Source of the DNA: Candidatus Saccharibacteria bacterium UBA5170
GTDB lineage: Bacteria; Patescibacteriota; Saccharimonadia; Saccharimonadales; Saccharimonadaceae
Direction: 5' to 3'
NCBI GenBank assembly: GCA_002413425.1
Contig: DHWY01000003.1
Location: forward strand, 17,693-81,692
DNA: 64,000 nt
Shown here: positions 5,913 through 49,472 of the stretch, piece by piece
How the letters are laid out: every line of letters starts with the position of its first letter
Position numbering within the stretch: the first letter of the stretch is position 1
Notes under the pieces: model-generated
What the model saw: the letters and a program-made list of their open reading frames with translations, nothing else
Told to the model about the DNA's origin: nothing
Databases searched by the model: none
Position numbers and translations under genes: made by a program

Positions 5913-6779
5913 TTATTTATTATCAACTATTAACTCAATCAATCCCGTAATACTTGTCGCCACGTGTGCACCGGCTTTTGCCAAAGCCTCCGTTTTACTG
6001 GCGGCGGATTCATCGGCGCTCCCCAGGATTGCTCCGGCATGGCCGAGTTGAACGCCAACCGGCGCGTGATGGCCGGCCACGTAGGCAAAGACCGGTTTGG
6101 TAACGGACGTGGCGATGTAGTCGGCCGCGAGCTGTTCGTCGGTGCCACCGATTTCACCAATCAGGACGATTTGATCAACTTCGGGGTCATTTTCAAATAA
6201 TTCCAGGCAGTCGATAAAACCAGTTCCACGGATGCGATCGCCGCCAGTCCCGATGACGTAGCGCTGGCCTATGCCCTTTGCGCTCAAGCCCGCCATTGTT
6301 TCATAGGTCAAGGTGCCGGAGCGGCTGACGATGGCTGTGCGGCCCGGCAGGGACATGTTGGCGGGAATTATCCCCAGCTTATTCACACCCGGAATGATAA
6401 CGCCTGGCGAGTTTGGTCCAATCAGGCTGCTACCCGAACCCGCCAGTCTTTTTTTAATCTGAATCATGTCATGAATCGGCACGCCTTCGGTAATACAGAC
6501 AATCAAGGGGATGTGGGCGGTAATCGCCTCGAAGATAGCCGATTTGGCAAACGGAGCGGGGACAAAAATGACCGTGGTGTCGACCGTGTGCTCTTTTTGA
6601 ATGTCGGCGATTGAGTCATAGACGGGCACGTCCTCGACAACTTGACCAGCTTTGCCAGGTGTTGTACCTGCAACAACATTCGTACCAGCCGCCAACATGG
6701 CTTTGGTCTGGAAGCGGCCGTGGCCACCGGTAATTCCCTGAACGATGACGTTCTGGGCTGAAAAGAGGGTGCTTTTCAC
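5913..6779 (-). CDS. sucD: Succinate--CoA ligase alpha subunit
   Basis: QGITGGHGRFQTKAMLAAGTNVVAGTTPGKAG and HAGAI (phosphohistidine loop). I prefer the GTG at 6779, which overlaps the sucC stop as GTGA. The track ORF extends to ATG 6812. Confidence 0.85.
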   Translation of the reverse strand: MKSTLFSAQNVIVQGITGGHGRFQTKAMLAAGTNVVAGTTPGKAGQVVEDVPVYDSIADIQKEHTVDTTVIFVPAPFAKSAIFEAITAHIPLIVCITEGVPIHDMIQIKKRLAGSGSSLIGPNSPGVIIPGVNKLGIIPANMSLPGRTAIVSRSGTLTYETMAGLSAKGIGQRYVIGTGGDRIRGTGFIDCLELFENDPEVDQIVLIGEIGGTDEQLAADYIATSVTKPVFAYVAGHHAPVGVQLGHAGAILGSADESAASKTEALAKAGAHVATSITGLIELIVDNK

Positions 6780-7843
6780 GACGAAACCTCTTGCTTGGCG
6801 GCTGCCAGGCATTCCTCGAGGGTGGCGAGGATAGGGATGTTTTCTTGTGAGAGTAGATCTGCGGCTGCCTCGAAGTTTGTTCCCGCCAGTCGAATAAATA
6901 GTGGGGGAAGGTTCTCGATTTGTTTTTTAGCAGCAATAATCGCCCGGGCCACTTCGTCACAGCGACTGATACCAGCGAAAACGTTGATCACAATCGCCTG
7001 GATGTTCGGGTATTCGGTAATGCGCCGAAAGGCAGCTACTAACGTCTCAGTGTTGGAGCCGCCACCGATGTCGAGGAAGTTAGCCGGTACCATGCCGTAA
7101 TCTGACACAGCGTCAACGGTCGCCATGGCCAGCCCGGCACCATTGGCGATCGTCGCCACGGTGCCGCCAGGATCCAGGGTGACGAAGTTAGCTTCGGCCG
7201 CCTTGTCTTCAAAGTTCCAATCGTGGCGAAAGGCCGCACTGTCGTCGAGCTCCATCTTGCAATCGCCAGCGACAAATTTTCCGTCATCGGTAAAAACCAA
7301 AGGGTTAATTTCTAGCAACGTGGCGTCATTTGCCACAAAACATTTGTATAAATTCTCTACCAGGTCCTGTAATACGAACGTCTGACTTGGTAAATTGTAA
7401 TAATCGGCCAATTGCTGTCCTGCTACCTCTACGGATTCACTGCTAATAGCTATATTCAAAAAGCTAATTGCCACATTTTCTTCTACTTCTACCCCGCCAT
7501 TGTTATGTGCCATCAAGCAAATCTCGGCCGCTGGCTTATCGATAACCAGCGAAAGGTAATATTCGTGGGCGATGGCTAGCTTTTCTTCCGCCAGAAGGGT
7601 CTGCGGTCGGTAGCCTTTGATTGAGAGCTCAAACAATTCATTGATTGTCTGCTGTAAACTATCTTTATCGTTAACAATTCGTATACCCCCCGCTTTACCA
7701 CGCCCACCGGTCGGGACTTGTGATTTTAAAACCACAGGAAATGTGAGTTGGGGCGAATCATTTCGATGAATTATAGATGAGCGGGGAGTCACAATCCCCG
7801 AAAGTGACAATAGATTCTTTGCCTCGTATTCCAGTAGCTTCAC
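6776..7843 (-). CDS. sucC: Succinate--CoA ligase beta subunit (short, 355 aa)
   Basis: MKLLEYEAKNLL start, ATP-grasp region, and NFLDIGGGSNTETLVAAFRRI...VINVFAGISRCDEVA, which matches the SucC CoA-ligase domain. Confidence 0.85.
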   Translation of the reverse strand: MKLLEYEAKNLLSLSGIVTPRSSIIHRNDSPQLTFPVVLKSQVPTGGRGKAGGIRIVNDKDSLQQTINELFELSIKGYRPQTLLAEEKLAIAHEYYLSLVIDKPAAEICLMAHNNGGVEVEENVAISFLNIAISSESVEVAGQQLADYYNLPSQTFVLQDLVENLYKCFVANDATLLEINPLVFTDDGKFVAGDCKMELDDSAAFRHDWNFEDKAAEANFVTLDPGGTVATIANGAGLAMATVDAVSDYGMVPANFLDIGGGSNTETLVAAFRRITEYPNIQAIVINVFAGISRCDEVARAIIAAKKQIENLPPLFIRLAGTNFEAAADLLSQENIPILATLEECLAAAKQEVSS

Positions 7844-37998: not shown

Positions 37999-38073
37999 TC
38001 CGACGTAGCTCAATGGTGGAGCAAGAAGCTGTTAACTTCGAGGTTGCTGGTTCGAGTCCAGCCGTCGGAGCCA
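37999..38073 (+). tRNA. tRNA-Asn (anticodon GTT), CCA encoded
   Basis: Acceptor TCCGACG/CGTCGGA. D arm GCTC..GAGC. Anticodon loop CTGTTAA. T arm GCTGG TTCGAGT CCAGC. Discriminator G plus CCA. Confidence 0.93.
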
Positions 38074-38087
38074 AGCCTGGATAAATG

Positions 38088-38122
38088 AAGTCAGAACTGT
38101 TAATTCAGTTCTGACTTTTTGA
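38088..38122 (+). terminator. Intrinsic terminator after tRNA-Asn
   Basis: AGTCAGAACTG / CAGTTCTGACT stem, TTAATT loop, then TTTTTGA. Confidence 0.7.
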
Positions 38123-38276
38123 TACCCAAACTAGAGCTGAAACTAACGGTACGATTGGTTTACGGAGGCAGATTTACGCTTAGAAAGAACTAACAATTCA
38201 TTTTACCGAGTTGATGCATGGCTACACCTAATAGATGAAGTCGTTTTATAGGGCCAACGATTGTATAATACATACT

Positions 38277-39932
38277 ATGAACGAAATAACAGCCCGAGAA
38301 TTGATTTCAAATATTGAAGATGAACATACTGAACGCAAAGCAGCTCGTGGCCAGTATGATATTAAAAATGTATGTCGTTATACTGTTGCATTATCGAACG
38401 AAGGCGGCGGTCACCTTATATTAGGCGTTGATGATGCGGGTAATATTGTTGGATCACAATCTTTCCAGGACATTCAACGTCTCAAAATCGACGTACTTAG
38501 TCAGCCGAAAATGAGTAGACGAATTCGCGTTGAGGTTGATGTTTTTCAATTGGACATGAAAAGGATTGTTATTATTAGCATACCCGGACGTAATCGTGGT
38601 CAGGCTGACAGCTATGATGGTGCTTATTTGATGCGTAGCGGCGAAAGCCTCACCGGGATGAATAATGATATGATCAGGGATATTCTAGCAGAAAATGTCT
38701 CCGATTATAGTTCAGACATAATCGAGGGAGTGACGCCGTCTGATTTGGACTCTGAAGCTATTGAGAGGGCACGGTACCTATGGCTGTCAAAGTCGGGTAA
38801 TGAACAGGTGGAGATAATGACACCTGAGCAGGTGGTTCAGGGGCTGGGGCTCATAGACGAAAGGGGTGTTACCCGTGCTGGACTTATATTACTCGGAAAG
38901 TCTTCGGCTATAGCTCGCTATATACCGAATGCTGAACTTATATGGGAATATCGCCGGCACAATGCAGATGTTGAATATGTTGCCCGTAACGACCACAGGG
39001 AAGCAGTTGTATTGTATCTAGATAAGCTATGGGGTCAAATTGATGCTCGCAACGAAGTCGCCCACGTTAATGAAGGTTTCTTTATTCGTGACATACCAGC
39101 TTTTGCCGAGAGTACGATACGAGAGGCTGTTTTGAACGCAATATCACACAGAGATTATCAGGATTCAGGTTCTGTTTATATACGTCAATCAGCCGAAGAT
39201 ATGATAGTGGAAAGTCCGGGCGGTTTTATTGGTGGCATAACACCGGATAACATCATGAACGCTTCAAGTAAGCCGCGTAACCGTTTAGTCGCCGAAGTGT
39301 TCCAAAAGCTTGGCCTTGTGGAGCGGTCTGGGCAAGGTGTGGATAAAATCTTTGTAAATTCCATTTCATCGGGTAAAGGCCAGCCTAGCTATAAAGCATC
39401 CACATTGCATGAAGTAAAATTATCAGTGAGTGCTCAAGTTCAGGATGTCAGCTTTATACAGTACCTCGATAAGGTATCTAGAGAAGCTAATATTAGGCTA
39501 TCTGCATCTGACTATGTTCTGCTTGAAAAGGTTCGTCTTGGACTAATTGATTCTATAGGTCATGAAAGTGGTCTAGCTAAGCTCTCTTCTGCCGGTATTA
39601 TTGAAGGGTCTCGTAGCGGTCGCTTTACAAAGCCGATGCTAGCGAAGCGTTTTTATAGTGCGATGAACAAAAGTGGCGAGTATACACGTCAGCGAGGCTT
39701 AGATGTTCAACAAAAGAAACAGTTGATTTTGACCCATCTCCAAAACTTTCCAAAAGCTTATGTAGCGGATATTGATGAAGCTTTGGGGTATCAAGTGAAA
39801 CGCTCAACTCTAAATAATTATCTTAAAGCACTACATGAAGAGGGTAAGATCGAATTTATTGGTAACCGTCACATTGGGCGTGGTAACAATCGAGGTTACT
39901 GGACATCAAAAAAGAAAGATCTATCTAAGTAA
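38277..39932 (+). CDS. AlbA_2 (Schlafen-like) + HATPase_c_4-like + C-terminal wHTH protein (putative ATP-binding transcriptional regulator)
   Basis: Start set at MNEITARELISNIEDEHTERK. TGTATAAT at 38262-38269 lies 7 nt upstream (leaderless). The E..E..E.K opening is typical of AlbA_2. REAVLNAISHRDYQDSGSVYIRQSAEDMIVESPGGF matches the HATPase_c_4 core. Confidence 0.75.
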   Translation: MNEITARELISNIEDEHTERKAARGQYDIKNVCRYTVALSNEGGGHLILGVDDAGNIVGSQSFQDIQRLKIDVLSQPKMSRRIRVEVDVFQLDMKRIVIISIPGRNRGQADSYDGAYLMRSGESLTGMNNDMIRDILAENVSDYSSDIIEGVTPSDLDSEAIERARYLWLSKSGNEQVEIMTPEQVVQGLGLIDERGVTRAGLILLGKSSAIARYIPNAELIWEYRRHNADVEYVARNDHREAVVLYLDKLWGQIDARNEVAHVNEGFFIRDIPAFAESTIREAVLNAISHRDYQDSGSVYIRQSAEDMIVESPGGFIGGITPDNIMNASSKPRNRLVAEVFQKLGLVERSGQGVDKIFVNSISSGKGQPSYKASTLHEVKLSVSAQVQDVSFIQYLDKVSREANIRLSASDYVLLEKVRLGLIDSIGHESGLAKLSSAGIIEGSRSGRFTKPMLAKRFYSAMNKSGEYTRQRGLDVQQKKQLILTHLQNFPKAYVADIDEALGYQVKRSTLNNYLKALHEEGKIEFIGNRHIGRGNNRGYWTSKKKDLSK

Positions 39933-40298
39933 GTACATTAGATTAGACAGATACTTAGATAGTTTTGTGCTTTCGCCTCTGTAAATAACTATCTATCATT
40001 TGTGGTTTTGCATACATAGTTGAATACATACCTAAATACAGAGTAAGGTTGCATCTAATCAAAAATGTATTACTAAAGAGTAATCTAAAAGCTTAGGCTT
40101 TTTGGTTAAGAGCTAAGAATTAACTACTGATTAAATATGAGCTCATACTGAGATCATGTAATCTATTTTGATGGAATCTTATTTTAGACTTGAAGCTAAG
40201 TCTGTTTTCACTAAAGTTATAACTTCCTCTATTGTGGTGAGCCAAGCATAAGCACTATGATTTAGGTCATGGTGTTTTTGTTTGGTATGATATAGGGC

Positions 40299-40634
40299 AT
40301 GGACAAGAAAATACTTATTGTAACGATGAACGACATTCCAGGCTACGAGATAGTCGAGGTCTATGGGGAAGTTTTCGGACTCTTAGCGCGCAGTAGAAAT
40401 CTCTTCAGTACCGTGGGGGCAGGGCTAAAATCTATCGTTGGCGGTGAAATAGGTGGGTACACGAAACTTCTCACAGATAGCCGTATTGAGGCGACTGAAC
40501 GGATGAAGGAAGCGGCCGCAAAGAAGGGTGCGAACGCAATTATCGCTATGAGGTTTGATACGAGCGAAATAGGAAATAATATGAATGAAGTTGCTGCATA
40601 CGGTACGGCCGTAAAAGTTCAAAAACTCAAGTGA
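40299..40634 (+). CDS. YbjQ-family (UPF0145) protein
   Basis: 111 aa. IPGYEIVEVYGEVFG...SIVGGEIGGYTKLL...AIIAMRFD is the characteristic YbjQ pattern. TGGTATGAT -10 lies 7 nt before the ATG. Confidence 0.85.
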   Translation: MDKKILIVTMNDIPGYEIVEVYGEVFGLLARSRNLFSTVGAGLKSIVGGEIGGYTKLLTDSRIEATERMKEAAAKKGANAIIAMRFDTSEIGNNMNEVAAYGTAVKVQKLK

Positions 40635-40756
40635 AAAAAACAAAAGCTGAATTTAAAACTCATATCCCTGAACCACGATGGCAGCAAATAGTAAGTGTTA
40701 TTATTGTGATTCTTATCGCTGCGGCCGAACTACTATTTGTGTTAAAGATTCTGTAG
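40631..40756 (+). CDS. Possible 41-aa single-TM peptide, start overlapping the YbjQ-like stop (GTGA)
   Basis: Own translation VKKTKAEFKTHIPEPRWQQIVSVIIVILIAAAELLFVLKIL*. Basic N-terminus plus one hydrophobic helix. No homology evidence. Confidence 0.3.
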   Translation: MKKTKAEFKTHIPEPRWQQIVSVIIVILIAAAELLFVLKIL

Positions 40757-40774
40757 CTGATAATTTCGAAGTGC

Positions 40775-40838
40775 GACCACTAACGGGAGCCAAGATGAAT
40801 TCAAATTACAAAAAGCCATTCGATAGGATGGCTTTTTG
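40775..40838 (+). repeat. tRNA-Asn 3'-end look-alike + terminator module, unit 1
   Basis: GACC ACTAACGG GAGCCAAGA (40775-40795), then hairpin AGCCAT..ATGGCT plus TTTTTGAT. Confidence 0.6.
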
Positions 40839-40856
40839 ATTTTCTAGCTCAGTTGG

Positions 40857-41381
40857 TTACTGTCTAATTCCAGATTTGAAATCACCAGGTTGCCGACGAC
40901 CCTTCCTGTATTTACTGGGCTGGTAGCCTTCGAGATTAATTTCAACCCCAGAATCGGCTGCGTCCTTTAGAGCTTCTTCTTGATAGGCTGCTTCGTCATC
41001 GTGATAGTGGAGACCACCAGCTATAACAGCAGCTTCTGTATTAAGCTCTTCGTCGTAGTGATGGCGCTTGGCGTTCTTTAGTTGGTCCATTTTTGTCGCC
41101 TTCATTTCCTTTGCTAACTTTATTTCTTCCTTTTGATCACGTCCGTCACGACTTAGCAAGCGTAGCAGGGGCGCTCGGGAGCGGTATTTAGCGCGTTGTT
41201 CGTCAAGATACCTAGTCTCATATTCGGACGATGAGGCAGTTCTAAGAAAATCTTCAGTGGCGAATCCGCTTAACTTGTGGGCAGCTTCGTACCTATTGAA
41301 TGAATCGGCCGGAGACTCTATTCCTGCAAGATGTTCTGTTATCATTTTTTCTTTTTGTTGTTGGTATGATTCTATTGACAT
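40857..41381 (-). CDS. Hypothetical highly charged protein (174 aa)
   Basis: Long ORF with its own near-consensus leaderless promoter. No recognisable domain. Confidence 0.6.
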   Translation of the reverse strand: MSIESYQQQKEKMITEHLAGIESPADSFNRYEAAHKLSGFATEDFLRTASSSEYETRYLDEQRAKYRSRAPLLRLLSRDGRDQKEEIKLAKEMKATKMDQLKNAKRHHYDEELNTEAAVIAGGLHYHDDEAAYQEEALKDAADSGVEINLEGYQPSKYRKGRRQPGDFKSGIRQ

Positions 41382-41387
41382 ACCAAT

Positions 41388-41416
41388 ATATTAGCACAAG
41401 CTTGATAATTTGTCAA
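41388..41416 (-). promoter_or_regulatory. Leaderless promoter of the 174-aa gene
   Basis: On the minus strand: TTGACA (41416-41411), 17-nt spacer, TAATAT (41393-41388), 6 nt, ATG (41381). Confidence 0.6.
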
Positions 41417-41699
41417 CATGCCAACTACTACCCCTTGGCGCGTACACCTAGAGACCCATTACATAGACTTAACTCTGTAATTACTTAGCCATTTCACTGC
41501 TGCGGTGGCTAGCGACTTTGCCTGACACAAGAATGCTTAAGACAGCACATGTGATTGTAGACGGAAGGCTTATTGCCTTTCATTACTTTATAGAGAAAGT
41601 AAGCTTCTACTGGAAGTTGAACTTCGAGAAGAATGGTCAAGAAAATTATGTTGTTGCATCATAATCTTGAACTAATAGTTAATTAAAGTTGCGAAGTAC

Positions 41700-41759
41700 G
41701 ACCACTAGTGGGAGCCAAGATGATTATGCTTAAAGATCTTTGAACTGAAGATCTTTTTG
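41700..41759 (+). repeat. tRNA-Asn 3'-end look-alike + terminator module, unit 2
   Basis: GACC ACTAGTGG GAGCCAAGA (41700-41720), then hairpin AAAGATCTT..AAGATCTTT plus TTTTTGAT. Shares a 33-nt core with unit 1. Confidence 0.6.
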
Positions 41760-41892
41760 ATTTGTTATACTGACTTTATGCCTGAACCAGATATCATTGA
41801 CTCATCTGTACATAACAACAAGGAAGATTTAGTCATAATCCTAAAGATTATATTTGGTATCAATTTGTGGAATGGGTCGTAGGGTTATTATA

Positions 41893-42417
41893 ATGTTCCG
41901 AATACACGAATATGACACATCTTATCCGATATTATTCCAAAAAGAGAGCCAAAAATTAGCTGAAATATTAAAAGGCACCTGTCTCATCGAACATATCGGC
42001 AGCACAGCAATACCGGGCGTTGATGGCAAGGGAGTGATTGATATTATGCTTGTCTTTGATAAACCAGATGAAATTGAACCGATTATTGTATCACTTCAGC
42101 AACATGGTTATTATTTTACAGATGGCGGCGTTGATAGAAGAGATAAAGCGTTTATGTCATCGTCTGGCGAACGAGAGAGCGGTCCGGGTGATATACATCT
42201 ACACTTAGTCTCAATAGATAATCAGGATTACCCAAGGGCAATTTTGTTTCGTGATTACTTAATCCGTCATCCCAAAGCAAAACAGTCCTATGTTAATTTA
42301 AAATATGAACTATACAAAAAAGTTGCTGGTAATAGATCAGAATACACAAAATTAAAGAGTAGTTTTATAGAAAAGATCATCGCTTTAGCTCAGGATGAGA
42401 CCACGAGAATAGAGTGA
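41893..42417 (+). CDS. GrpB-family (UPF0157) nucleotidyltransferase-fold protein
   Basis: Start set at MFRIHEYDTSYPILFQKESQKL. IEHIGSTAIPGVDGKGVIDIML and HLHLV motifs are typical of GrpB. Confidence 0.8.
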   Translation: MFRIHEYDTSYPILFQKESQKLAEILKGTCLIEHIGSTAIPGVDGKGVIDIMLVFDKPDEIEPIIVSLQQHGYYFTDGGVDRRDKAFMSSSGERESGPGDIHLHLVSIDNQDYPRAILFRDYLIRHPKAKQSYVNLKYELYKKVAGNRSEYTKLKSSFIEKIIALAQDETTRIE

Positions 42418-42430
42418 GTCAAATCTCCGT

Positions 42431-42483
42431 GACCCGTATGCCGAGCCAAGAAAATTGTCAGACCTTTTAGTCTGGCATTTTTC
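42431..42483 (+). repeat. tRNA-Asn 3'-end look-alike + terminator module, unit 3
   Basis: GACC CGTATGCC GAGCCAAGA (42431-42451), then hairpin GTCAGAC..GTCTGGC plus a T-run. Confidence 0.55.
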
Positions 42484-42577
42484 ATGGCTTTATATTACGC
42501 AGAATACTTGAACTATTAGAACCCATTAGCCATTTGCCAACTATCTTTGAAAGTGTTACATTAAGTCAAAGTATCAT

Positions 42578-44527
42578 ATGAATAGAGAAACGCTTACAAA
42601 TGGGTATCACGAAGACGACCAACCCCTAGTAAGAGGTGAGATTCCTAGTGAAGAAGTACTTCAGTTATTAGCAAAGGCGCTTAATCCTTCGCTGGACACG
42701 CCTCCAGTGCTCATAGAACAGATTCTAGAAACCACTTCGCGGTGGAATAGTAAAGAGATACCTAAAGAGTTAGATTCCGTGCTTAATCGATTAGATTTTC
42801 ACCCTCGGGGAACTGCTCTTATACCGCAATTTGACACTATACCTTTCTTTAAGCGCGTAGGTGAGAAAATTGAAGTTTACAAAGATAAGCATGCCCGAAA
42901 CAGGGAGGAAAATGGCAAGTCGGAGGCTGCAGAATTTGGCGTCGGCAAAGTGGGCGACCAAGATGTCGTTGTCTACGCTATGAACTACGACTTTATGGGC
43001 GGCTCATTGTCGTCTGTTGCTGGTGAAAAGCTTTTACAAGCAATCGAGCTCGCGGAAGCGACCAAGCGGCCTTTATTAACAGTTTATTCGTCTGGTGGAG
43101 CACGACAAGACGAAAACGGTAGGGCGTTATACCAAATGGAACGTGGTGTAGTCGGCTTGGAGGTTTTAAAAGAAAAAGCTCCTAACGTACCGAATATTGC
43201 TATTTTACTTGGAGAAGTTTGGGGTGGAGTCACCGCCAGTTCTATGCCACGAGCAGATTTACGCGTCGCCTACACCGGCACCCGTATGGGATTTGCTGGT
43301 GGCCGCGTTATCGCAGCCCATGAGGGCTCTGAAGTGTCTGAAAGTGCTCAGCGGGTAGAAGTGCATGCTCTTCAGCGTAACGTTGACGTTCTGGTACGTA
43401 ATACCGATGAATTAATGAATCATCTGACGGCATTTTTTGCGAATTATTCACAACCTTCAACAAGATTTGAACCCAGTCTCATTCCCCCTACACACGTTGT
43501 GGGACCAGATGGAGACCAACGGCATTTCCGTTTGTCTGACCATGTCGTAGCCCCAGCGTTGTACAAAGATGATCTTAAAGGCGCTCCAGTCGTCGCTTCT
43601 ATGCGATTACGGACTGAGCGCGCTATCATGACACTATTTAACTCAGAACTGGCCGCTGGCAAAACTGAAGCAGAAGCCCGCAAAGCCGCAGAGGGTCAAA
43701 TGCTAACCGATCGTTATAGAAATCTACTTTTCGATGTGGCGCGACCTGATACCGAAATGATTTTACAACAAGCTTTCCAAGACGTAGTGCCACTGTATAA
43801 TCATTTTTACGATAAGGAACGTGGTGAATATGTATATCCCCCGATTATCGCAGGAATTGGCCGTATCGGTTTGCAAGCGTTTATGGTAGCAGGAAACCAA
43901 CCATCATATCGTGTCGTTGATAGTGAAGTCTCAAAAATACTTTCTACGCCAAAACCCGCCGACCTCAAATACCTATTACGAACACTTAATCTTGGAGATA
44001 GGTTGCAATTACCGCTCGTGCTGCTCACGGATACCCCAGGCGCTGAACCATCTTTAGACTCAGAGCTACAGGGGCAGTTTGAAGACATTGCAAACGTTCT
44101 AGCTCGCTATCATAAATACGGCAAGCCGATTATGAGTATTGTGACGGGCTTACAGGGAAGTGGAGGTGGATTAGTGACTTCTCCTCGTGGTGATTCGTTG
44201 GCGGTACTCAGCAAAGGACTTATGACTGTAGCAGAGCCAGGGGCAGCCTCGGTAATTGTCTATGGGGCTAACGCTACACACCAAAACCGCACGGATACTA
44301 TTTTGGCGCTTAGCCCAAGCAGTGAGATGCAGCGTAAAATTGGGTTGGTAGACGCCGTTATCCCAGAAGCAGACAACCCGTATGAAACTATTGCAGCAAT
44401 CAGAGAACATATTATCAAAACTTATGGTCGGCTTGCGCTTATTAAATCCAGTAAGTTACTCGCAGATCGCTGGAATGTCCGCTTGCGTGATGCCAAGCCT
44501 TTTAAGGTATCAGAATCGGGGTTCTAA
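42578..44527 (+). CDS. Fused acetyl-CoA carboxylase-type carboxyltransferase, beta (AccD-like) + alpha (AccA-like) halves
   Basis: 649 aa. N-terminal half: YDFMGGSLSSVAGEKLLQAIELAEATKRPLLTVYSSGGARQ (AccD FMGGSMG...SGGARMQ pattern) without the AccD zinc ribbon. C-terminal half: LPLVLLTDTPGAEPSLDSELQGQFEDIANVL...IVTGLQGSGGGL (AccA IDTPGAYPG...GEGGSGGAL pattern). Confidence 0.85.
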   Translation: MNRETLTNGYHEDDQPLVRGEIPSEEVLQLLAKALNPSLDTPPVLIEQILETTSRWNSKEIPKELDSVLNRLDFHPRGTALIPQFDTIPFFKRVGEKIEVYKDKHARNREENGKSEAAEFGVGKVGDQDVVVYAMNYDFMGGSLSSVAGEKLLQAIELAEATKRPLLTVYSSGGARQDENGRALYQMERGVVGLEVLKEKAPNVPNIAILLGEVWGGVTASSMPRADLRVAYTGTRMGFAGGRVIAAHEGSEVSESAQRVEVHALQRNVDVLVRNTDELMNHLTAFFANYSQPSTRFEPSLIPPTHVVGPDGDQRHFRLSDHVVAPALYKDDLKGAPVVASMRLRTERAIMTLFNSELAAGKTEAEARKAAEGQMLTDRYRNLLFDVARPDTEMILQQAFQDVVPLYNHFYDKERGEYVYPPIIAGIGRIGLQAFMVAGNQPSYRVVDSEVSKILSTPKPADLKYLLRTLNLGDRLQLPLVLLTDTPGAEPSLDSELQGQFEDIANVLARYHKYGKPIMSIVTGLQGSGGGLVTSPRGDSLAVLSKGLMTVAEPGAASVIVYGANATHQNRTDTILALSPSSEMQRKIGLVDAVIPEADNPYETIAAIREHIIKTYGRLALIKSSKLLADRWNVRLRDAKPFKVSESGF

Positions 44528-44535
44528 AAATTCAA

Positions 44536-44596
44536 GACCCGCGTACTGAGCCAAACAGGAGCATCATAAGAAGACCTTCCTAGGAAGTCCTTTTGT
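44536..44596 (+). repeat. tRNA-Asn 3'-end look-alike + terminator module, unit 4 (most diverged)
   Basis: GACC CGCGTACT GAGCCAAAC (44536-44556), then interrupted hairpin around the palindrome CTTCCTAGGAAG plus TTTTG. Confidence 0.5.
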
Positions 44597-44669
44597 TAAT
44601 CTAGTAATCATAATTACAGCAAAAAGACATAATGTTTTATAATGGCGGTAATGGTAAGGAGGATTAACT

Positions 44670-44876
44670 ATGGGTAGTCATGATGGGAAAACGGTCAAAG
44701 TTATTAACCGAGCAGGTCCAACTGGTTTTGTGTTTTTCCTGGCGTATATCGGCGCTGCGATCTACTTTATCCAGCAGTCATCGGGAGGATTCTGGGAAGT
44801 GATACTGGGGCTTCTGCAGGCGGCGGTGTGGCCTGTTTACGTTATTTATCACGTGCTTCAACTCTTGGGCGTGTGA
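44670..44876 (+). CDS. Small two-TM membrane protein (68 aa)
   Basis: AAGGAGG SD 7 nt upstream and TATAAT upstream. Two hydrophobic helices. Confidence 0.55.
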   Translation: MGSHDGKTVKVINRAGPTGFVFFLAYIGAAIYFIQQSSGGFWEVILGLLQAAVWPVYVIYHVLQLLGV

Positions 44877-45013
44877 GAAACGTTGGAGGCAAGCGAACAG
44901 GCATGTGTGTTGCTGAGTGGTCTATCGCTATGCAGACAATCTTTCCATGTAGTGCGATAATGGTTGTATAGGGCATAAACAACGTGTCTTGTGTTTAATG
45001 AGGAGGTATATGT

Positions 45014-45250
45014 ATGGCTAGCGAACAATCGCCAGAGTTACGTGATGATGAACCAAATAATGAATTAGGATTTCGGGCAGGTGAGCAAGACTCGGAGACT
45101 AGCTTCGACGACGACAAAGACGTGGACCCCAAGGTGCGAAAAGAGTTGTATCTCTTAGCAGCTGAACTTGACGAACGTTTAGCTGGTCAACCTGCCAATC
45201 CCGCGGCGACTAAGCCAGCCGAGGAGGGCTCAGACACTTACTTGGGTTAA
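45014..45250 (+). CDS. Small acidic protein (78 aa), unknown function
   Basis: GAGGAGG SD upstream. Very D/E-rich, probably disordered. Confidence 0.5.
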   Translation: MASEQSPELRDDEPNNELGFRAGEQDSETSFDDDKDVDPKVRKELYLLAAELDERLAGQPANPAATKPAEEGSDTYLG

Positions 45251-45283
45251 TCTAGATTTTTTATTCATGGTAGACTTATACAT

Positions 45284-46603
45284 ATGTCAGTTGATGTAAT
45301 TGTTGGTCTCCAACGGGGTGACGAAGGCAAGGGGCGCTTTGTCGATATGCTTTCGGAAAAGCACGATATTGTCACTCGATTTAATGGCGGTAATAATGCT
45401 GGGCACACCGTCGTGCTCCCAGACGGACGAGAGCTCGCCCTCCACTTAGTACCTTCGGGGATTGCGCATCCAGGGATTATGAACATTATCGGCAACGGCA
45501 CGCTGGTTAATCCGATAAAACTTGTTGAAGAAATTGATGATATCAAGTCTAAAGGGATTGAAGTCAACAGCAGGAATTTAATGCTCAGCTCGGCTGCTCA
45601 CTTGATTTTACCCCACCATATTTATGATGATGAGATTAGGGAAGCGGGCAAAGGTCGGCAGGGGAGTACTAAATCTGGCATTGCTCAAGTCGCTTCCCAA
45701 AAGGCGATGCGCGCCGGTGCCAGAGTCGAGTTAATCAATGACAATCCAGAAGGCTTATCGGACATAGTCTATGAAGGCCTGGTGGCCCAAAGACCACTAC
45801 GCCAAGAAGCCGGGCTCGAACCTATTGATGAAGCTGCCGTTGCAAAAGAGTATATTGAAAACGCCAAACGTATTAGAGGGTTTGTAACCGATACCGTACT
45901 GTATCTGAATCAACAGTTACGGTTAGATAAACCAGCTCGGGTTTTGGCTGAAGGTGCGCAAGCGTTCTGGCTCGATATTGACCATGGTATGTATCCTTAC
46001 ACGACATCTTCGTCCACGACCTCGGGCGGTGTGTGCACGGGGCTTGGTGTTGCCCCCGCTTTTATCGATCAAGTGACCGGCATTGCCAAGGCCATACCAT
46101 CGCACGTCGGCGGCGGTCCATTCGTGACTGAAATTACCGAGACTGAACAGTTAAAGCGTTTACATGGCGATATGACGACGATTGATGCCGAAAAGGGCAC
46201 CACAACCGGGCGAATACGTCGGCTTGGCCACCTTGATTTACCACAAATACGACGATCTCAGATGGTCAACGGCATAGAGGGAAAGCAAGATATGGCGCTC
46301 ACCAAGCTTGACTGGGTGCGTCGCTATGGTGACGAGGTAAAGATTTGTGTTGCCTATTCGCTGGAAGGCAAACGGATTGAGATTGCACCCGACGCGGCTT
46401 ATAAGTTAGAGCAGGTCACGCCTATTTACGAATCGCTACCGACCTGGCAAGAGGATATCCAGGATATTCGCCAGTTTGATGATTTACCCAAAGCCGCCCA
46501 GAACTACATTGAGTTTATTGAAGGTATTACTAAAGTACCTATTTCCCTGATCGGAGTTGGTCCGAGACGCGATCAAGTCATCGTTCGCGACGTGCTAGAC
46601 TAA
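45284..46603 (+). CDS. purA: Adenylosuccinate synthetase
   Basis: VIVGLQRGDEGKGRFVD P-loop, GGNNAGHT and TTGRIRR motifs. 439 aa. Confidence 0.95.
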   Translation: MSVDVIVGLQRGDEGKGRFVDMLSEKHDIVTRFNGGNNAGHTVVLPDGRELALHLVPSGIAHPGIMNIIGNGTLVNPIKLVEEIDDIKSKGIEVNSRNLMLSSAAHLILPHHIYDDEIREAGKGRQGSTKSGIAQVASQKAMRAGARVELINDNPEGLSDIVYEGLVAQRPLRQEAGLEPIDEAAVAKEYIENAKRIRGFVTDTVLYLNQQLRLDKPARVLAEGAQAFWLDIDHGMYPYTTSSSTTSGGVCTGLGVAPAFIDQVTGIAKAIPSHVGGGPFVTEITETEQLKRLHGDMTTIDAEKGTTTGRIRRLGHLDLPQIRRSQMVNGIEGKQDMALTKLDWVRRYGDEVKICVAYSLEGKRIEIAPDAAYKLEQVTPIYESLPTWQEDIQDIRQFDDLPKAAQNYIEFIEGITKVPISLIGVGPRRDQVIVRDVLD

Positions 46604-46608
46604 GACCT

Positions 46609-47415
46609 ATGAATACACTCCTTTCAATGGCCACCATCGCCCGCGAAGCCGGTCAATTTATGCTCGGTTCACTCGAGACCGAAAGCACCGACAAATCCAA
46701 TACCAAAGATTTCGTGACCGTCGCCGACATCAAGTCGCAAGCTATTTTACGCGACAGGTTGCTCGAAATTGAGCCAACCGCCGTGGTCTTGTCGGAAGAG
46801 GACCCGGAGGAAGAGCGCGCCGCGATGTACGCAACTGATTTTACCGGCTATGTACTCGACCCAATCGATGGGACGTATAACTTCAAGCGGGGTATGAAGG
46901 AATCGGCTATTTCGATTGGCTATATCGAGAATGGCTTACCGATCAGAGGCGTTATTTACGACTCATACAAGGACGAGATGTATACGGCCGAAAAAGGGAT
47001 GGGTGCATTTCGAAACGGTGAAGCCATTCACGTCAGCTCGCAGAGTGAAGTCGCCGGTGCCAGCGTCGCAATTAGCAATGGCTACAACGACGCGGCGTTG
47101 GCGGCTAACTTGCACCGCCACCTTCAAATCTATGAGCAAACGGGCGTGTTGCCATGGACGAGCTGTCCGGGTAGTGCGGTATTGGTCATGGCCTGGATTG
47201 CCTGTGGACGAATCGATGCACTTCACCACAATGGACTAAAACCATGGGATAACGCCGCCGCGTTCTTACTGGTTACCGAAGCTGGTGGCGAGTTCTGCAA
47301 ACTCGACGGCACGCCGGCTAAGTTTACGGAAAACGCCGTGATTATCGGCAATCCCGCGATTGTGGCAGTTTTGAAAGAAATTTTTGCTACGATTGACCCA
47401 ATCTTGCTGACCTAG
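46609..47415 (+). CDS. Inositol monophosphatase family protein
   Basis: VLSEEDPEE, LDPIDGTYNF and WDNAAA motifs of the IMPase/SuhB family. Confidence 0.88.
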   Translation: MNTLLSMATIAREAGQFMLGSLETESTDKSNTKDFVTVADIKSQAILRDRLLEIEPTAVVLSEEDPEEERAAMYATDFTGYVLDPIDGTYNFKRGMKESAISIGYIENGLPIRGVIYDSYKDEMYTAEKGMGAFRNGEAIHVSSQSEVAGASVAISNGYNDAALAANLHRHLQIYEQTGVLPWTSCPGSAVLVMAWIACGRIDALHHNGLKPWDNAAAFLLVTEAGGEFCKLDGTPAKFTENAVIIGNPAIVAVLKEIFATIDPILLT

Positions 47416-47473
47416 ACCAGAATCACAATTAGAAGCGCCCGGCTTGCAGGCCAAGGTAATGCTGTTCTCATAC

Positions 47474-47515
47474 TTGACACACTTTTCATACTAGCCGTAT
47501 AATCAATAGTTGATT
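47474..47515 (+). promoter_or_regulatory. Promoter plus palindromic candidate operator of the AbrB-like/MFS operon
   Basis: TTGACA (47474-47479), 18-nt spacer, TATAAT (47498-47503), immediately followed by the palindrome ATCAATAGTTGAT. Confidence 0.55.
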
Positions 47516-47538
47516 GTATAAAAGGAAAGGCTTGTAGT

Positions 47539-47778
47539 ATGCACGGAAAAAAGCTCTATGGTACCGCGACGGTTGGTACAAAAGGTCAGATAGTTATTCC
47601 GGCCGATGCCCGGGAAGAACTTAATATTCATGCTGGTGACAGGTTCTATGTCGTCGGTTCGCCTCGCAAAGGGGTGATTGGACTGTTAAAAGAAGATACG
47701 CTAGAACATTTTATTGAACAAACTAACCTCCAACTAGAAAATTTTAAAGCTATAAAAAATACGAGAGAAAAAAACTAA
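47539..47778 (+). CDS. AbrB/MazE/SpoVT-family DNA-binding protein
   Basis: 79 aa. TVGTKGQIVIPADAREELNIHAGDRFYVV is the swapped-hairpin barrel signature. Confidence 0.8.
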   Translation: MHGKKLYGTATVGTKGQIVIPADAREELNIHAGDRFYVVGSPRKGVIGLLKEDTLEHFIEQTNLQLENFKAIKNTREKN

Positions 47779-47783
47779 CAAAT

Positions 47784-49472
47784 ATGCACCATCATCTTAC
47801 TTTACGTAGCAAATTAATAATCATGATATCAGTTATGGCGAGCCTGTTTTTAGTGGCGCTTGACCAGACAATTATCGCTACCGCCCTTGGCAAGATTGTC
47901 GAACAGTTTAACGCCTTTGATTCACTCAGCTGGGTTGTGACGGCTTACCTGGTGACGACGACCATCACGGTGCCGATTGCTGGAAAACTGTCTGACCTAT
48001 TTGGTCGTCGTATCATGCTGCTGATTGGTGTGGCCGTCTTTACTATTGGTTCACTTTCGAGTGGTATGAGCGGTAATATTACCGAGTTGATTCTCTGGCG
48101 TGCCTTGCAGGGTATCGGTGGTGGTATCATTACAGCCAACGCCTTTACGATTGTTGGTGACTTGTTCGCCGCTAGGGAGCGCGGCAAGTGGCAGGGACTG
48201 ATCGGTGCTGTTTTTGGTCTCAGTTCGGTTGTTGGACCGCTGTTAGGTGGCTGGTTAACTGACGGCCAACATATCGTCGGACTTGTTACCGACTGGCGTT
48301 GGGCTTTCTTTATCAACGTGCCGGTTGGCGTTGTTGCCTTTATCCTCATTTCGATGTACTCACCGACCTTCCGGCATGCGACTAAACCATCGATTGACTA
48401 TCTGGGGGCTTCTATTCTGGCGCTGGCGCTGGGTACGTTGATATTTGCCGTCGACAATACCGAGACTATCTTTGCCAGCTTCTTAAGCTCGACAGGTATG
48501 ACAGTCGGAACCTTAAAAGCGATGATGTTTGGATTTGTGGCCATCCTCGTGGTCCTGTTCGTGTTGGTTGAAAGAAAGGCCAAACAGCCAATCCTGCCAC
48601 CACTCTTCTTCAAGAATCGGAATTTCGTGCTCATTATGAGCGTTGCCATGTTATTTGGATCTGCCTTTATGGGTTCGATTCTGTATCTGACCCAGTTTAA
48701 TCAACAAGTCTTTGGGGCAACACCGACCCAGTCTGGACTGATGCTGTTGCCAATGGTGGGGGGTATTATGGTATCGAGCATTGGGGCTGGCCAAATTATT
48801 TCACGGATTGGTCGCTATAAGATTTTTATGCAAGTCGGTTTTGTCGTGGCGACAATTGCCATGTTTTTCTTATCAACCCTGACACCAGAAAGTGGCTTTG
48901 GCTATGAAGCGATGATAATGATAGCCCTTGGCCTGGGGATGGGTGTTGCCATGCCGGTCATTAACCTGGCTGTCCAGAATGAGTTTGAGCAGAGTGAATT
49001 GGGCGCGGCGACGAGTTCCAGCCAGTTATTCCGTAGCCTCGGTTCTACCATCGGTATTGCGGTGTTTGGTGCGATGTTAACGTCCGGTATTGTGGCGCAT
49101 CTTGGCGATGTTCAGCAAAGCGCTTATCTGCAGACGTTAAAGAAAAATCCTGCGGTTTCAAAAATAGGTGACCTGAACGACGCCAATACTATCTTGAGCC
49201 TCAATATGCCGGACGCGAAGGGCTTGATAACCAGTTCGGCGCAAAAAAGTTTTGCCCAAATACATGAACCTGTTCGGACGAGCGTAACAAAGGAGTTTAA
49301 GGCCCAGCAAGATCAGTTCGCCGATACTGTGACGCATGCCTTTAGCGCGAGTTTGCAGCGTATTTTTTTGGTGGCAGCGGGGCTCATGATAACGGCCACA
49401 ATAGGGGTTTTTGCGCTGAAGGAAAGGCCACTCAGAAGCGCGAAACCGACCGAAACCCCTGGTGAGATGTAA
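47784..49472 (+). CDS. MFS transporter, DHA2 (14-TMS, EmrB/QacA-like) drug:H+ antiporter family
   Basis: 562 aa. LDQTIIATAL, GKLSDLFGRR and LWRALQGIGGG motifs. About 14 TM segments. Confidence 0.88.
   Translation: MHHHLTLRSKLIIMISVMASLFLVALDQTIIATALGKIVEQFNAFDSLSWVVTAYLVTTTITVPIAGKLSDLFGRRIMLLIGVAVFTIGSLSSGMSGNITELILWRALQGIGGGIITANAFTIVGDLFAARERGKWQGLIGAVFGLSSVVGPLLGGWLTDGQHIVGLVTDWRWAFFINVPVGVVAFILISMYSPTFRHATKPSIDYLGASILALALGTLIFAVDNTETIFASFLSSTGMTVGTLKAMMFGFVAILVVLFVLVERKAKQPILPPLFFKNRNFVLIMSVAMLFGSAFMGSILYLTQFNQQVFGATPTQSGLMLLPMVGGIMVSSIGAGQIISRIGRYKIFMQVGFVVATIAMFFLSTLTPESGFGYEAMIMIALGLGMGVAMPVINLAVQNEFEQSELGAATSSSQLFRSLGSTIGIAVFGAMLTSGIVAHLGDVQQSAYLQTLKKNPAVSKIGDLNDANTILSLNMPDAKGLITSSAQKSFAQIHEPVRTSVTKEFKAQQDQFADTVTHAFSASLQRIFLVAAGLMITATIGVFALKERPLRSAKPTETPGEM

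Follow-up and report, generated by a model that had tools for sequence, protein, structure and literature searches.

A fused AccD-AccA-like carboxyltransferase without a zinc ribbon in a Saccharibacteria genome lacking detectable biotin handling: a possible biotin-independent decarboxylase

AccD/AccA-type carboxyltransferases are a textbook case of biotin-dependent enzymes. The AccD (beta) and AccA (alpha) subunits form the carboxyltransferase of heteromeric acetyl-coenzyme A carboxylase (ACC), and they also occur as natural fusions. In PccB, AccD5, the transcarboxylase 12S subunit and GcdA-type enzymes, both crotonase domains are in one chain, and to our knowledge all of these enzymes depend on a biotin carrier protein. 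The AccD and AccA homologues MdcD and MdcE need no biotin to decarboxylate a malonyl thioester, and malonyl-CoA serves them as a substrate in vitro; the oxyanion hole is located on the beta-like subunit, and residues of the alpha-like subunit are thought to bind the malonyl group (PMC5534430). Here we analyze a gene for a fused beta-alpha carboxyltransferase, P0001, from a 64,000-nucleotide stretch of the genome of Candidatus Saccharibacteria bacterium UBA5170 (the window). The protein belongs, according to its sequence, to a distinct uncharacterised family without a zinc ribbon, its genome contains no detectable partner of a biotin-dependent carboxylase, and it may function as a decarboxylase. 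The gene is divided as follows:

42578-44527, + strand: coding sequence of the fused beta-alpha carboxyltransferase P0001, 649 residues, ATG start
42578-42871, + strand: N-terminal residues 1-98, at the position of the AccD zinc ribbon; no cysteine; residues 1-42 predicted to be disordered
42872-43447, + strand: AccD-like (beta) half, residues 99-290, with the motifs FMGGSLS, SSGGARQDEN, GEVWGGVTAS and GFAGGRVI
43448-43732, + strand: inter-domain linker, residues 291-385, longer in the alignment than the linkers of canonical fusions, with the weakest constraint of all regions
43733-44524, + strand: AccA-like (alpha) half, residues 386-649, with the motifs DTPGAEPS, ELQGQ and GLQGSGGGL

P0001 is an intact single-chain carboxyltransferase in which a linker joins an AccD-like half to an AccA-like half. 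This agrees with an earlier sequence-only reading of the window, which had described the open reading frame (ORF) as such a fusion. Pfam assigns Carboxyl_trans to residues 115-267 (E 1e-21) and ACCA to residues 387-633 (E 1e-26), and the motifs quoted in that reading are all present. Residues 137-151 read YDFMGGSLSSVAGEK, residues 171-180 SSGGARQDEN, residues 484-492 TDTPGAEPS and residues 523-534 TGLQGSGGGLVT. The lack of the Cys4 zinc ribbon of AccD, claimed in the same reading, was borne out by the absence of any cysteine within residues 1-100, whereas the canonical fused AccD-AccA proteins aligned with P0001 do carry CxxC...CxxC. The closest solved structures are AccD 9m70_A (E 1e-23) and E. 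coli 2f9y_B for residues 99-295, and AccA 2f9y_A (E 1.5e-17) for residues 409-620, where 8uxz_A also aligned. Every NCBIfam match of P0001 is far under its curated cut-off: 113 bits for accD (TIGR00515, cut-off 317), 101 and 81 bits for the accA models NF041504 and TIGR00513 (cut-offs 300 and 319), 49.5 bits for MdcD (TIGR03133, cut-off 278), and 26.5 bits for MdcE (TIGR03134, cut-off 237).

The residues conserved between canonical AccD/AccA and the ribbon-less family are all retained in P0001. Residues G174, R176, E179, G216, G217, F239 and G241 of the beta half, and D485, T486, A489, E496, G499 and G527-G530 of the alpha half, are invariant across the ribbon-less and canonical proteins. The AlphaFold2 model of P0001, calculated from a 30-sequence alignment, has a predicted local distance difference test score of 85.5 and a predicted template modelling score of 0.86, with disorder limited to residues 1-42. 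Its predicted fold is that of the PccB, AccD5 and 12S carboxyltransferases (Foldseek probability 1.0), with TM-scores to two-domain carboxyltransferases of 0.5-0.57 normalized by query length and 0.64-0.71 by target length. The glycine-rich catalytic motifs of the two halves are intact.

The gene is, as judged from codon comparisons, under strong purifying selection within Saccharibacteria. In a codon alignment of three Saccharibacteria copies from different genera, the ratio of non-synonymous to synonymous substitution rates (dN/dS) was 0.073 for the whole gene, at a dS of 1.6, relative to the copy from Saccharibacteria UBA5145 (L011); dS relative to the third copy (L012) was saturated. In the comparison with L011, dN/dS was lowest in the alpha half (0.035), followed by the beta half (0.049), the N-terminus (0.15) and the linker (0.19, range 0.19-0.27). 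These values, together with the retained residues, argue that P0001 is maintained by selection and plausibly catalytic, as opposed to a relic.

The family to which P0001 is assigned was delineated by searching 1.84 billion representatives exhaustively with HMMER; a locus scan queried with the single P0001 protein gave no matches. The family comprises approximately 60 clusters at 50% identity, none of which has the zinc ribbon, and its members are 600-660 residues long with beta-alpha order. They carry the motifs GxRQxEN, VWGG, DT(L/P)GAxPT and xLGSGGG, as opposed to GGARMQE, (T/M)xGG, DTPGAYPG and GEGGSGG of the canonical proteins, and the clade of P0001, with GGARQDEN, EVWGGVTAS, DTPGAEPS and LQGSGGGL, shares the features that define the family. 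P0001 thus resembles AccD, AccA and their fusions in domain order, in the glycine-rich motifs of both halves and in fold, but differs from the fusions in its missing ribbon, longer linker and family-specific motif variants. Its identity to the ribbon-bearing fusions is 23-29%, and a quick maximum-likelihood tree sets it apart from them (100 in the SH-like approximate likelihood ratio test, SH-aLRT). In this tree, the ribbon-less family, most members of which have no taxonomy, is monophyletic relative to the ribbon-bearing fusions (SH-aLRT 100), and P0001 groups with two close Saccharibacteria copies and one metagenome protein (SH-aLRT 100). The whole-chain fold of P0001 is best matched by the PccB, AccD5, 12S and GcdA-type enzymes, which likewise hold both crotonase domains in one chain, but sequence identity to them is 15-19%, and each half of P0001 is nearer to AccD or AccA. 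The best functional analogy is MdcD-MdcE, an AccD-/AccA-like pair with the crotonase fold (PMC5534430); however, MdcD and MdcE are two separate subunits that act together with MdcA and the carrier MdcC, and their sequence similarity to P0001 is weak.

The gene has a patchy distribution. It was found in none of 60 relatives (36 from the same genus and 24 from the same order), and in an even sample of 401 Patescibacteria the only strong match was in the source genome itself; six others were weak and belonged to other carboxyltransferase types. The fusion is therefore not the standard carboxyltransferase form of the lineage. One of nine genomes in the genus of Saccharibacteria UBA5145 contains the gene, as do two of 121 in an even sample of Acidimicrobiales. 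Among species-representative genomes, the best 80 of 439 loci are mostly from Acidimicrobiales metagenome-assembled genomes (MAGs), at 35-38% identity to P0001; a further 312 loci are in metagenomes, and roughly 50 family members are unbinned. The few from the candidate phyla radiation (CPR) are Saccharibacteria at 81%, 75% and 38% identity, one Levyibacteriota and one MAG labelled 'Patescibacteria group'; the closest relatives of P0001 among these 80 are in MAGs labelled Candidatus Saccharibacteria. Besides a few CPR lineages, the family is found in one subclade of Acidimicrobiaceae. In the tree, the Acidimicrobiales sequences constitute a single shallow clade that is nested within CPR and unbinned sequences, and this hints that Acidimicrobiaceae received the gene and were not its donor, with the deeper nodes being weak and most members lacking taxonomy. 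The carboxyltransferase is an accessory gene that is horizontally exchanged.

The source genome has 779,530 bp in four contigs and is 97.9% complete, although not closed. It was searched as a whole with protein family profiles, and control genomes gave matches in each search. The sequence-only reading had noted that neither biotin carboxylase nor biotin carboxyl carrier protein (BCCP) is encoded nearby, and this holds for the entire genome, in which Biotin_carb_C, Biotin_lipoyl and the biotin ligase domain BPL_LplA_LipB gave no matches. The profiles ketoacyl-synt, for ketoacyl synthases, and PP-binding, for acyl carrier protein, also had no match in the genome, with FabD and FabH not searched separately. 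The conjecture of a CPR-type host without fatty-acid synthesis agrees with these results, with the genome size of 780 kb and with Candidatus Saccharibacteria as the closest carriers. P0001 is encoded by the sole Carboxyl_trans gene of the genome, which differs from the setting of ACC in lacking AccB, AccC, BirA and type II fatty-acid synthesis (FAS II). Canonical fusions, unlike P0001, adjoin genes for FabH and BirA, or for BCCP and biotin carboxylase. MdcA (PF16957) and MdcC (PF06857) had no matches in the whole genome, and neither did CoaE, which catalyzes the last step of CoA synthesis, or the PTA_PTB profile of Pta.

The absence of biotin-related genes recurs across CPR carriers and is not an accident of assembly, because the four other CPR carrier genomes also lack Biotin_carb_C, BioY and a clear BCCP: Biotin_lipoyl had no match in three of them and one marginal 22-bit match in the Levyibacteriota. 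The uptake of free biotin through BioY was rejected, since BioY had no match in any of the five CPR carriers, the source genome included. Conversion of acetyl-CoA to ATP through Pta and AckA was likewise rejected; acetate kinase (AckA) is present in the source genome and Pta is absent. The window also contains overlapping SucD-like (CoA_binding and Ligase_CoA) and SucC-like (ATP-grasp_2 and Ligase_CoA) genes at 5913-7843 on the - strand, although no CoaE or Pta was found in the genome. This pair was rejected as a source of a dicarboxyl-CoA substrate: none of the four other CPR carriers has a sucCD-like pair, and seven of 40 same-genus genomes have the pair without the carboxyltransferase.

Based on the sequence, the modelled fold and the gene content of the genome, a mechanism can be proposed. 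The canonical two-step carboxyl transfer cannot run in this cell, because no biotin carboxylase, carrier, ligase or transporter was found. We favor, tentatively and at somewhat short of an even chance, the reading of P0001 as a free-standing, biotin-independent decarboxylase of a malonyl-type thioester, by analogy with MdcD-MdcE. P0001 would act alone and without biotin, and its chemistry would be the first half-reaction of a carboxyltransferase. A malonyl-type (beta-carboxy) thioester would be bound by the beta half, and the enolate would be stabilized in the glycine oxyanion hole as CO2 departs. With no biotin to accept the CO2, the enolate would be protonated, so that the net outcome would be decarboxylation, for example of malonyl-CoA to acetyl-CoA. 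As in other carboxyltransferases, the active site probably lies where the beta half of a chain meets the alpha half of its partner in a homodimer, and the arrangement of MdcD-MdcE fits the strong constraint on both halves of P0001. The substrate would have to be supplied by the host or arise in spontaneous side reactions, since no CoaE was found in this episymbiont genome, and the reaction would then be a salvage or clean-up step. Of the non-canonical roles offered by the sequence-only reading, decarboxylation or acyl-CoA salvage fits best, and the transcarboxylase or GcdA-type role is not supported because the biotin carrier is absent. The observation on which that reading was built is confirmed, and its interpretation is partly supported. 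The two findings that it had named as diminishing the case, accB/accC with a fab pathway elsewhere in the genome and the fusion as the usual form in the lineage, were both looked for, and neither was obtained.

Several points weigh against a decarboxylase. Its main weakness is that the origin of the thioester and the use of the product are unexplained: the genome has no evident source of a malonyl-CoA-like thioester, as it encodes neither ACC nor CoaE, and no Pta to turn acetyl-CoA into ATP. We know of no membrane crossing by acyl-CoAs. The GSGGG motif of the alpha half, which is the biotin oxyanion hole in canonical enzymes, is fully conserved, and the alpha half is the most constrained part of the protein; the conservation of GSGGG would also fit a reaction that depends on an unrecognised carrier. 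The bit scores place P0001 nearer to AccD and AccA (113 and 101) than to MdcD and MdcE (49.5 and 26.5). The examined Acidimicrobiaceae carrier, a complete chromosome, encodes two BC-BCCP proteins and two PccB-type enzymes, with the ribbon-less protein as an additional, third carboxyltransferase; the family therefore also occurs in a cell that has biotin enzymes. A literature search for this protein in CPR returned nothing relevant.

A serious alternative, if one that we regard as less likely, is that the family has kept the fold but gained a new function in the crotonase/ClpP superfamily, on a substrate that is not of the malonyl-CoA type. A beta-carboxy or beta-hydroxy acid metabolite linked to enzymes dependent on pyridoxal phosphate (PLP) is a candidate. 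Such chemistry could account for the family-specific invariants beside the catalytic glycines, where VWGG replaces (T/M)xGG and xLGSGGG replaces GEGGSGG, as well as for the invariant RN ahead of the DVLV strand and for DT(L/P)GAxPT in place of DTPGAYPG. It would also suit the very little CoA metabolism of the source genome and the divergent PLP enzyme that adjoins the gene in two unrelated lineages, Acidimicrobiales and rhizosphere Patescibacteria. However, the PLP link comes from these two independent lineages only, the Saccharibacteria carriers have no PLP-enzyme neighbour, and the source genome contains no PALP enzyme, so a PLP-enzyme link was rejected for this genome. Furthermore, all residues shared by the canonical beta and alpha subunits are kept, which argues for thioester-enolate chemistry. 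It is improbable that P0001 carries out true carboxyl transfer through free biotin or an unrecognised carrier, either a small molecule or a host-derived protein. The E. coli carboxyltransferase is routinely assayed in reverse using free biocytin, and the invariant GSGGG and lowest dN/dS (0.035) of the alpha half speak for such a transfer; however, neither BioY nor a biotin ligase was found, no clear biotin-lipoyl domain occurs in the carriers, and there is no ATP-dependent carboxylase to load a carrier. Free carboxybiotin is unstable, so that the net result would again be decarboxylation.

That the gene is a recently acquired passenger, neutral or decaying and without function in its host, is very unlikely. 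Its location in a variable region, patchy distribution and lack of evident partner genes are as expected of a passenger, but the reading frame is uninterrupted, the catalytic motifs do not vary, the three Saccharibacteria copies of different genera show a dN/dS of 0.07 at saturated dS, and one Patescibacteria lineage keeps the gene in stable housekeeping synteny on at least eight contigs. An ordinary ACC carboxyltransferase whose partners AccB, AccC, BirA and FAS II were missed in an incomplete assembly is close to refuted. The genome is indeed in four contigs, and the best sequence matches of P0001 are AccD and AccA; against this, the assembly is 97.9% complete, six separate families are absent from it while controls matched, the same absence is repeated in four other carrier genomes, the scores are far under the equivalog cut-offs, the zinc ribbon is missing, and the gene is in none of the 60 relatives. 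We give the least credence to an antibiotic decoy that confers resistance to carboxyltransferase inhibitors, as AdmT does for andrimid. AccD homologues can confer andrimid resistance, AdmT is likewise an AccD homologue outside the normal context of fatty-acid synthesis, and P0001 is encoded among accessory cargo. However, AdmT is a lone beta subunit from a biosynthetic cluster that works inside the ACC of its host, none of which is true of P0001. The decoy, which the sequence-only reading had listed as an option, is not supported because the cell lacks an ACC that could be protected or complemented, the neighbouring genes (GrpB, YbjQ and purA) include no biosynthetic cluster, and P0001 is a beta-alpha fusion.

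A conserved AccD/AccA-type enzyme thus persists in at least five genomes without detectable biotin handling, one of which, the source genome, has no fatty-acid synthesis and very little CoA metabolism. This raises the question of which carboxylated substrate a Saccharibacteria-type cell meets. If P0001 is a biotin-free decarboxylase, it would be a second, independently evolved example alongside MdcD-MdcE, and its approximately 60 clusters would constitute a defined protein family that is at present misannotated as 'acetyl-CoA carboxylase carboxyltransferase'. Annotation of this kind can lead metabolic reconstructions to credit CPR genomes wrongly with malonyl-CoA synthesis. We speculate, with more doubt, that the ribbon-less family as a whole is a new class of free-standing biotin-independent decarboxylases, or of carboxyl-handling enzymes with an unrecognised acceptor, which spread horizontally among CPR episymbionts and into one Acidimicrobiaceae clade and which in CPR cells processes a host-derived carboxylated thioester. 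The presence of a ribbon-less enzyme would then suggest that CoA-linked metabolites pass between host and episymbiont.

The carboxyltransferase has no conserved partner gene, and its neighbours vary among the Saccharibacteria carriers:

Window: GrpB upstream; two small ORFs and purA downstream
UBA5145: ArsP permease upstream; CsoR-like repressor and copper ATPase downstream
Third Saccharibacteria carrier (L012): major facilitator superfamily (MFS) gene upstream; terminase-small-like gene, Dam and serine recombinase downstream
Acidimicrobiales: divergent BhcC-like PLP enzyme, trehalose genes, Liv-type ATP-binding cassette transporter and sometimes acyl-CoA synthetase

In the rhizosphere Patescibacteria lineage, the gene is in stable synteny with dnaB, dnaX and rplJ across at least eight contigs. 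The designation of the gene as an orphan therefore holds for its lack of partners in the genome, but not for the protein, which is a member of a sizeable family; one other Patescibacteria lineage has the gene among housekeeping genes and not on an island. In the third Saccharibacteria carrier (L012:10201-17251, GCA_964632215), the carboxyltransferase is followed by the terminase-small-like ORF, a Dam-type methyltransferase and the serine recombinase, which adjoins tRNA-Glu; this segment looks like a remnant of a prophage or mobile element. In the two unrelated lineages with a PLP enzyme, the latter is transcribed divergently from the carboxyltransferase (L050:487-1758 and L161:8808-9821, both on the - strand, and relatives). 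The enzyme of Acidimicrobiales is BhcC-like with a D-Ser-dehydratase fold (248 bits, under the cut-off), and that of the rhizosphere Patescibacteria is a Ser/Thr-dehydratase-like PALP protein that also has a weak BhcB match. The pairing may reflect a functional link to beta-hydroxy amino acid metabolism, with two independent cases only.

The sequence-only reading had placed the gene on a tRNA-linked island, and the window does contain a variable region adjoining a tRNA gene, the content of which differs in every same-genus relative examined. The features that frame the carboxyltransferase are:

37999-38073, + strand: tRNA-Asn (GTT), conserved, bounding the variable region on its left side (ARAGORN; Rfam 65 bits)
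38074-47783, no strand assigned: variable region of approximately 9.7 kb, differing in gene content among relatives
42456-42477, + strand: terminator-like hairpin ending the preceding GrpB cassette, with GAGCCAAG immediately before it at 42443-42450
42534-42562, + strand: promoter-like site, TTGCCA, 17-nt spacer and TG-TACATT, putative, from a consensus scan only (9/12 matches) without proof of function
45284-46603, + strand: purA, accessory, starting about 750 bp downstream of the carboxyltransferase

The variable region encodes an AlbA_2/HATPase_c_4 protein, YbjQ, a hypothetical gene, GrpB, the carboxyltransferase, two small ORFs, purA and an inositol-monophosphatase-family gene. As in the window, a beta-lactamase-like gene precedes tRNA-Asn in all six same-genus relatives fetched, and the content past the tRNA is different in each of them. 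In one (G013, L109), 5 kb of unrelated small ORFs is followed by a return of synteny at the MFS gene (window position 47784). The GC content is 0.40-0.44 over 38-44 kb, compared to 0.51-0.53 upstream. These data support the carboxyltransferase being cargo of a tRNA-adjacent variable region, an arrangement that is not universal for the ribbon-less family. The gene looks monocistronic, and the putative promoter would leave a very short leader ahead of its ATG.

The accessory purA occurs in ten of 40 same-genus genomes. The window copy is 83% identical to purA of UBA5145 (L011), compared to 65-74% for same-genus copies, and in UBA5145 purA is located 4 kb from the carboxyltransferase. Nucleotide homology to other Saccharibacteria is limited to the coding sequences of these two genes. 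Both probably came from another genus, and purA probably shares the history of the carboxyltransferase. Between the two genes, small ORFs with strong Shine-Dalgarno sequences are located at 44670-44876 and 45014-45250 on the + strand; they encode a 68-residue hydrophobic and a 78-residue acidic protein, neither of which has a Pfam match.

The Rfam search of the region found tRNA only, and neither an integrase nor a long direct tRNA repeat that could be an attachment (att) site was found in the variable region. A classical tRNA-derived att repeat with integrase was therefore rejected; the region has no more than short sequences similar to the 3' end of the tRNA, GAGCCAAG, with terminators after them. 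This 8-mer from the 3' end of tRNA-Asn occurs in five + strand copies within 4.4 kb, at 38068, 40239, 40787, 41712 and 42443, and 34 times genome-wide, compared to about 24 expected. At least four of the five copies, including the tRNA end, precede terminator-like hairpins. The series looks like serial integration scars or cassette boundaries. Two of the copies are within a 35-nt repeat, at 40764-40798 and 41689-41723, the units of which are 89% identical, and the 8-mer is also present in the tRNA-Asn-adjacent regions of the same-genus relatives L106, L107, L109 and L110.

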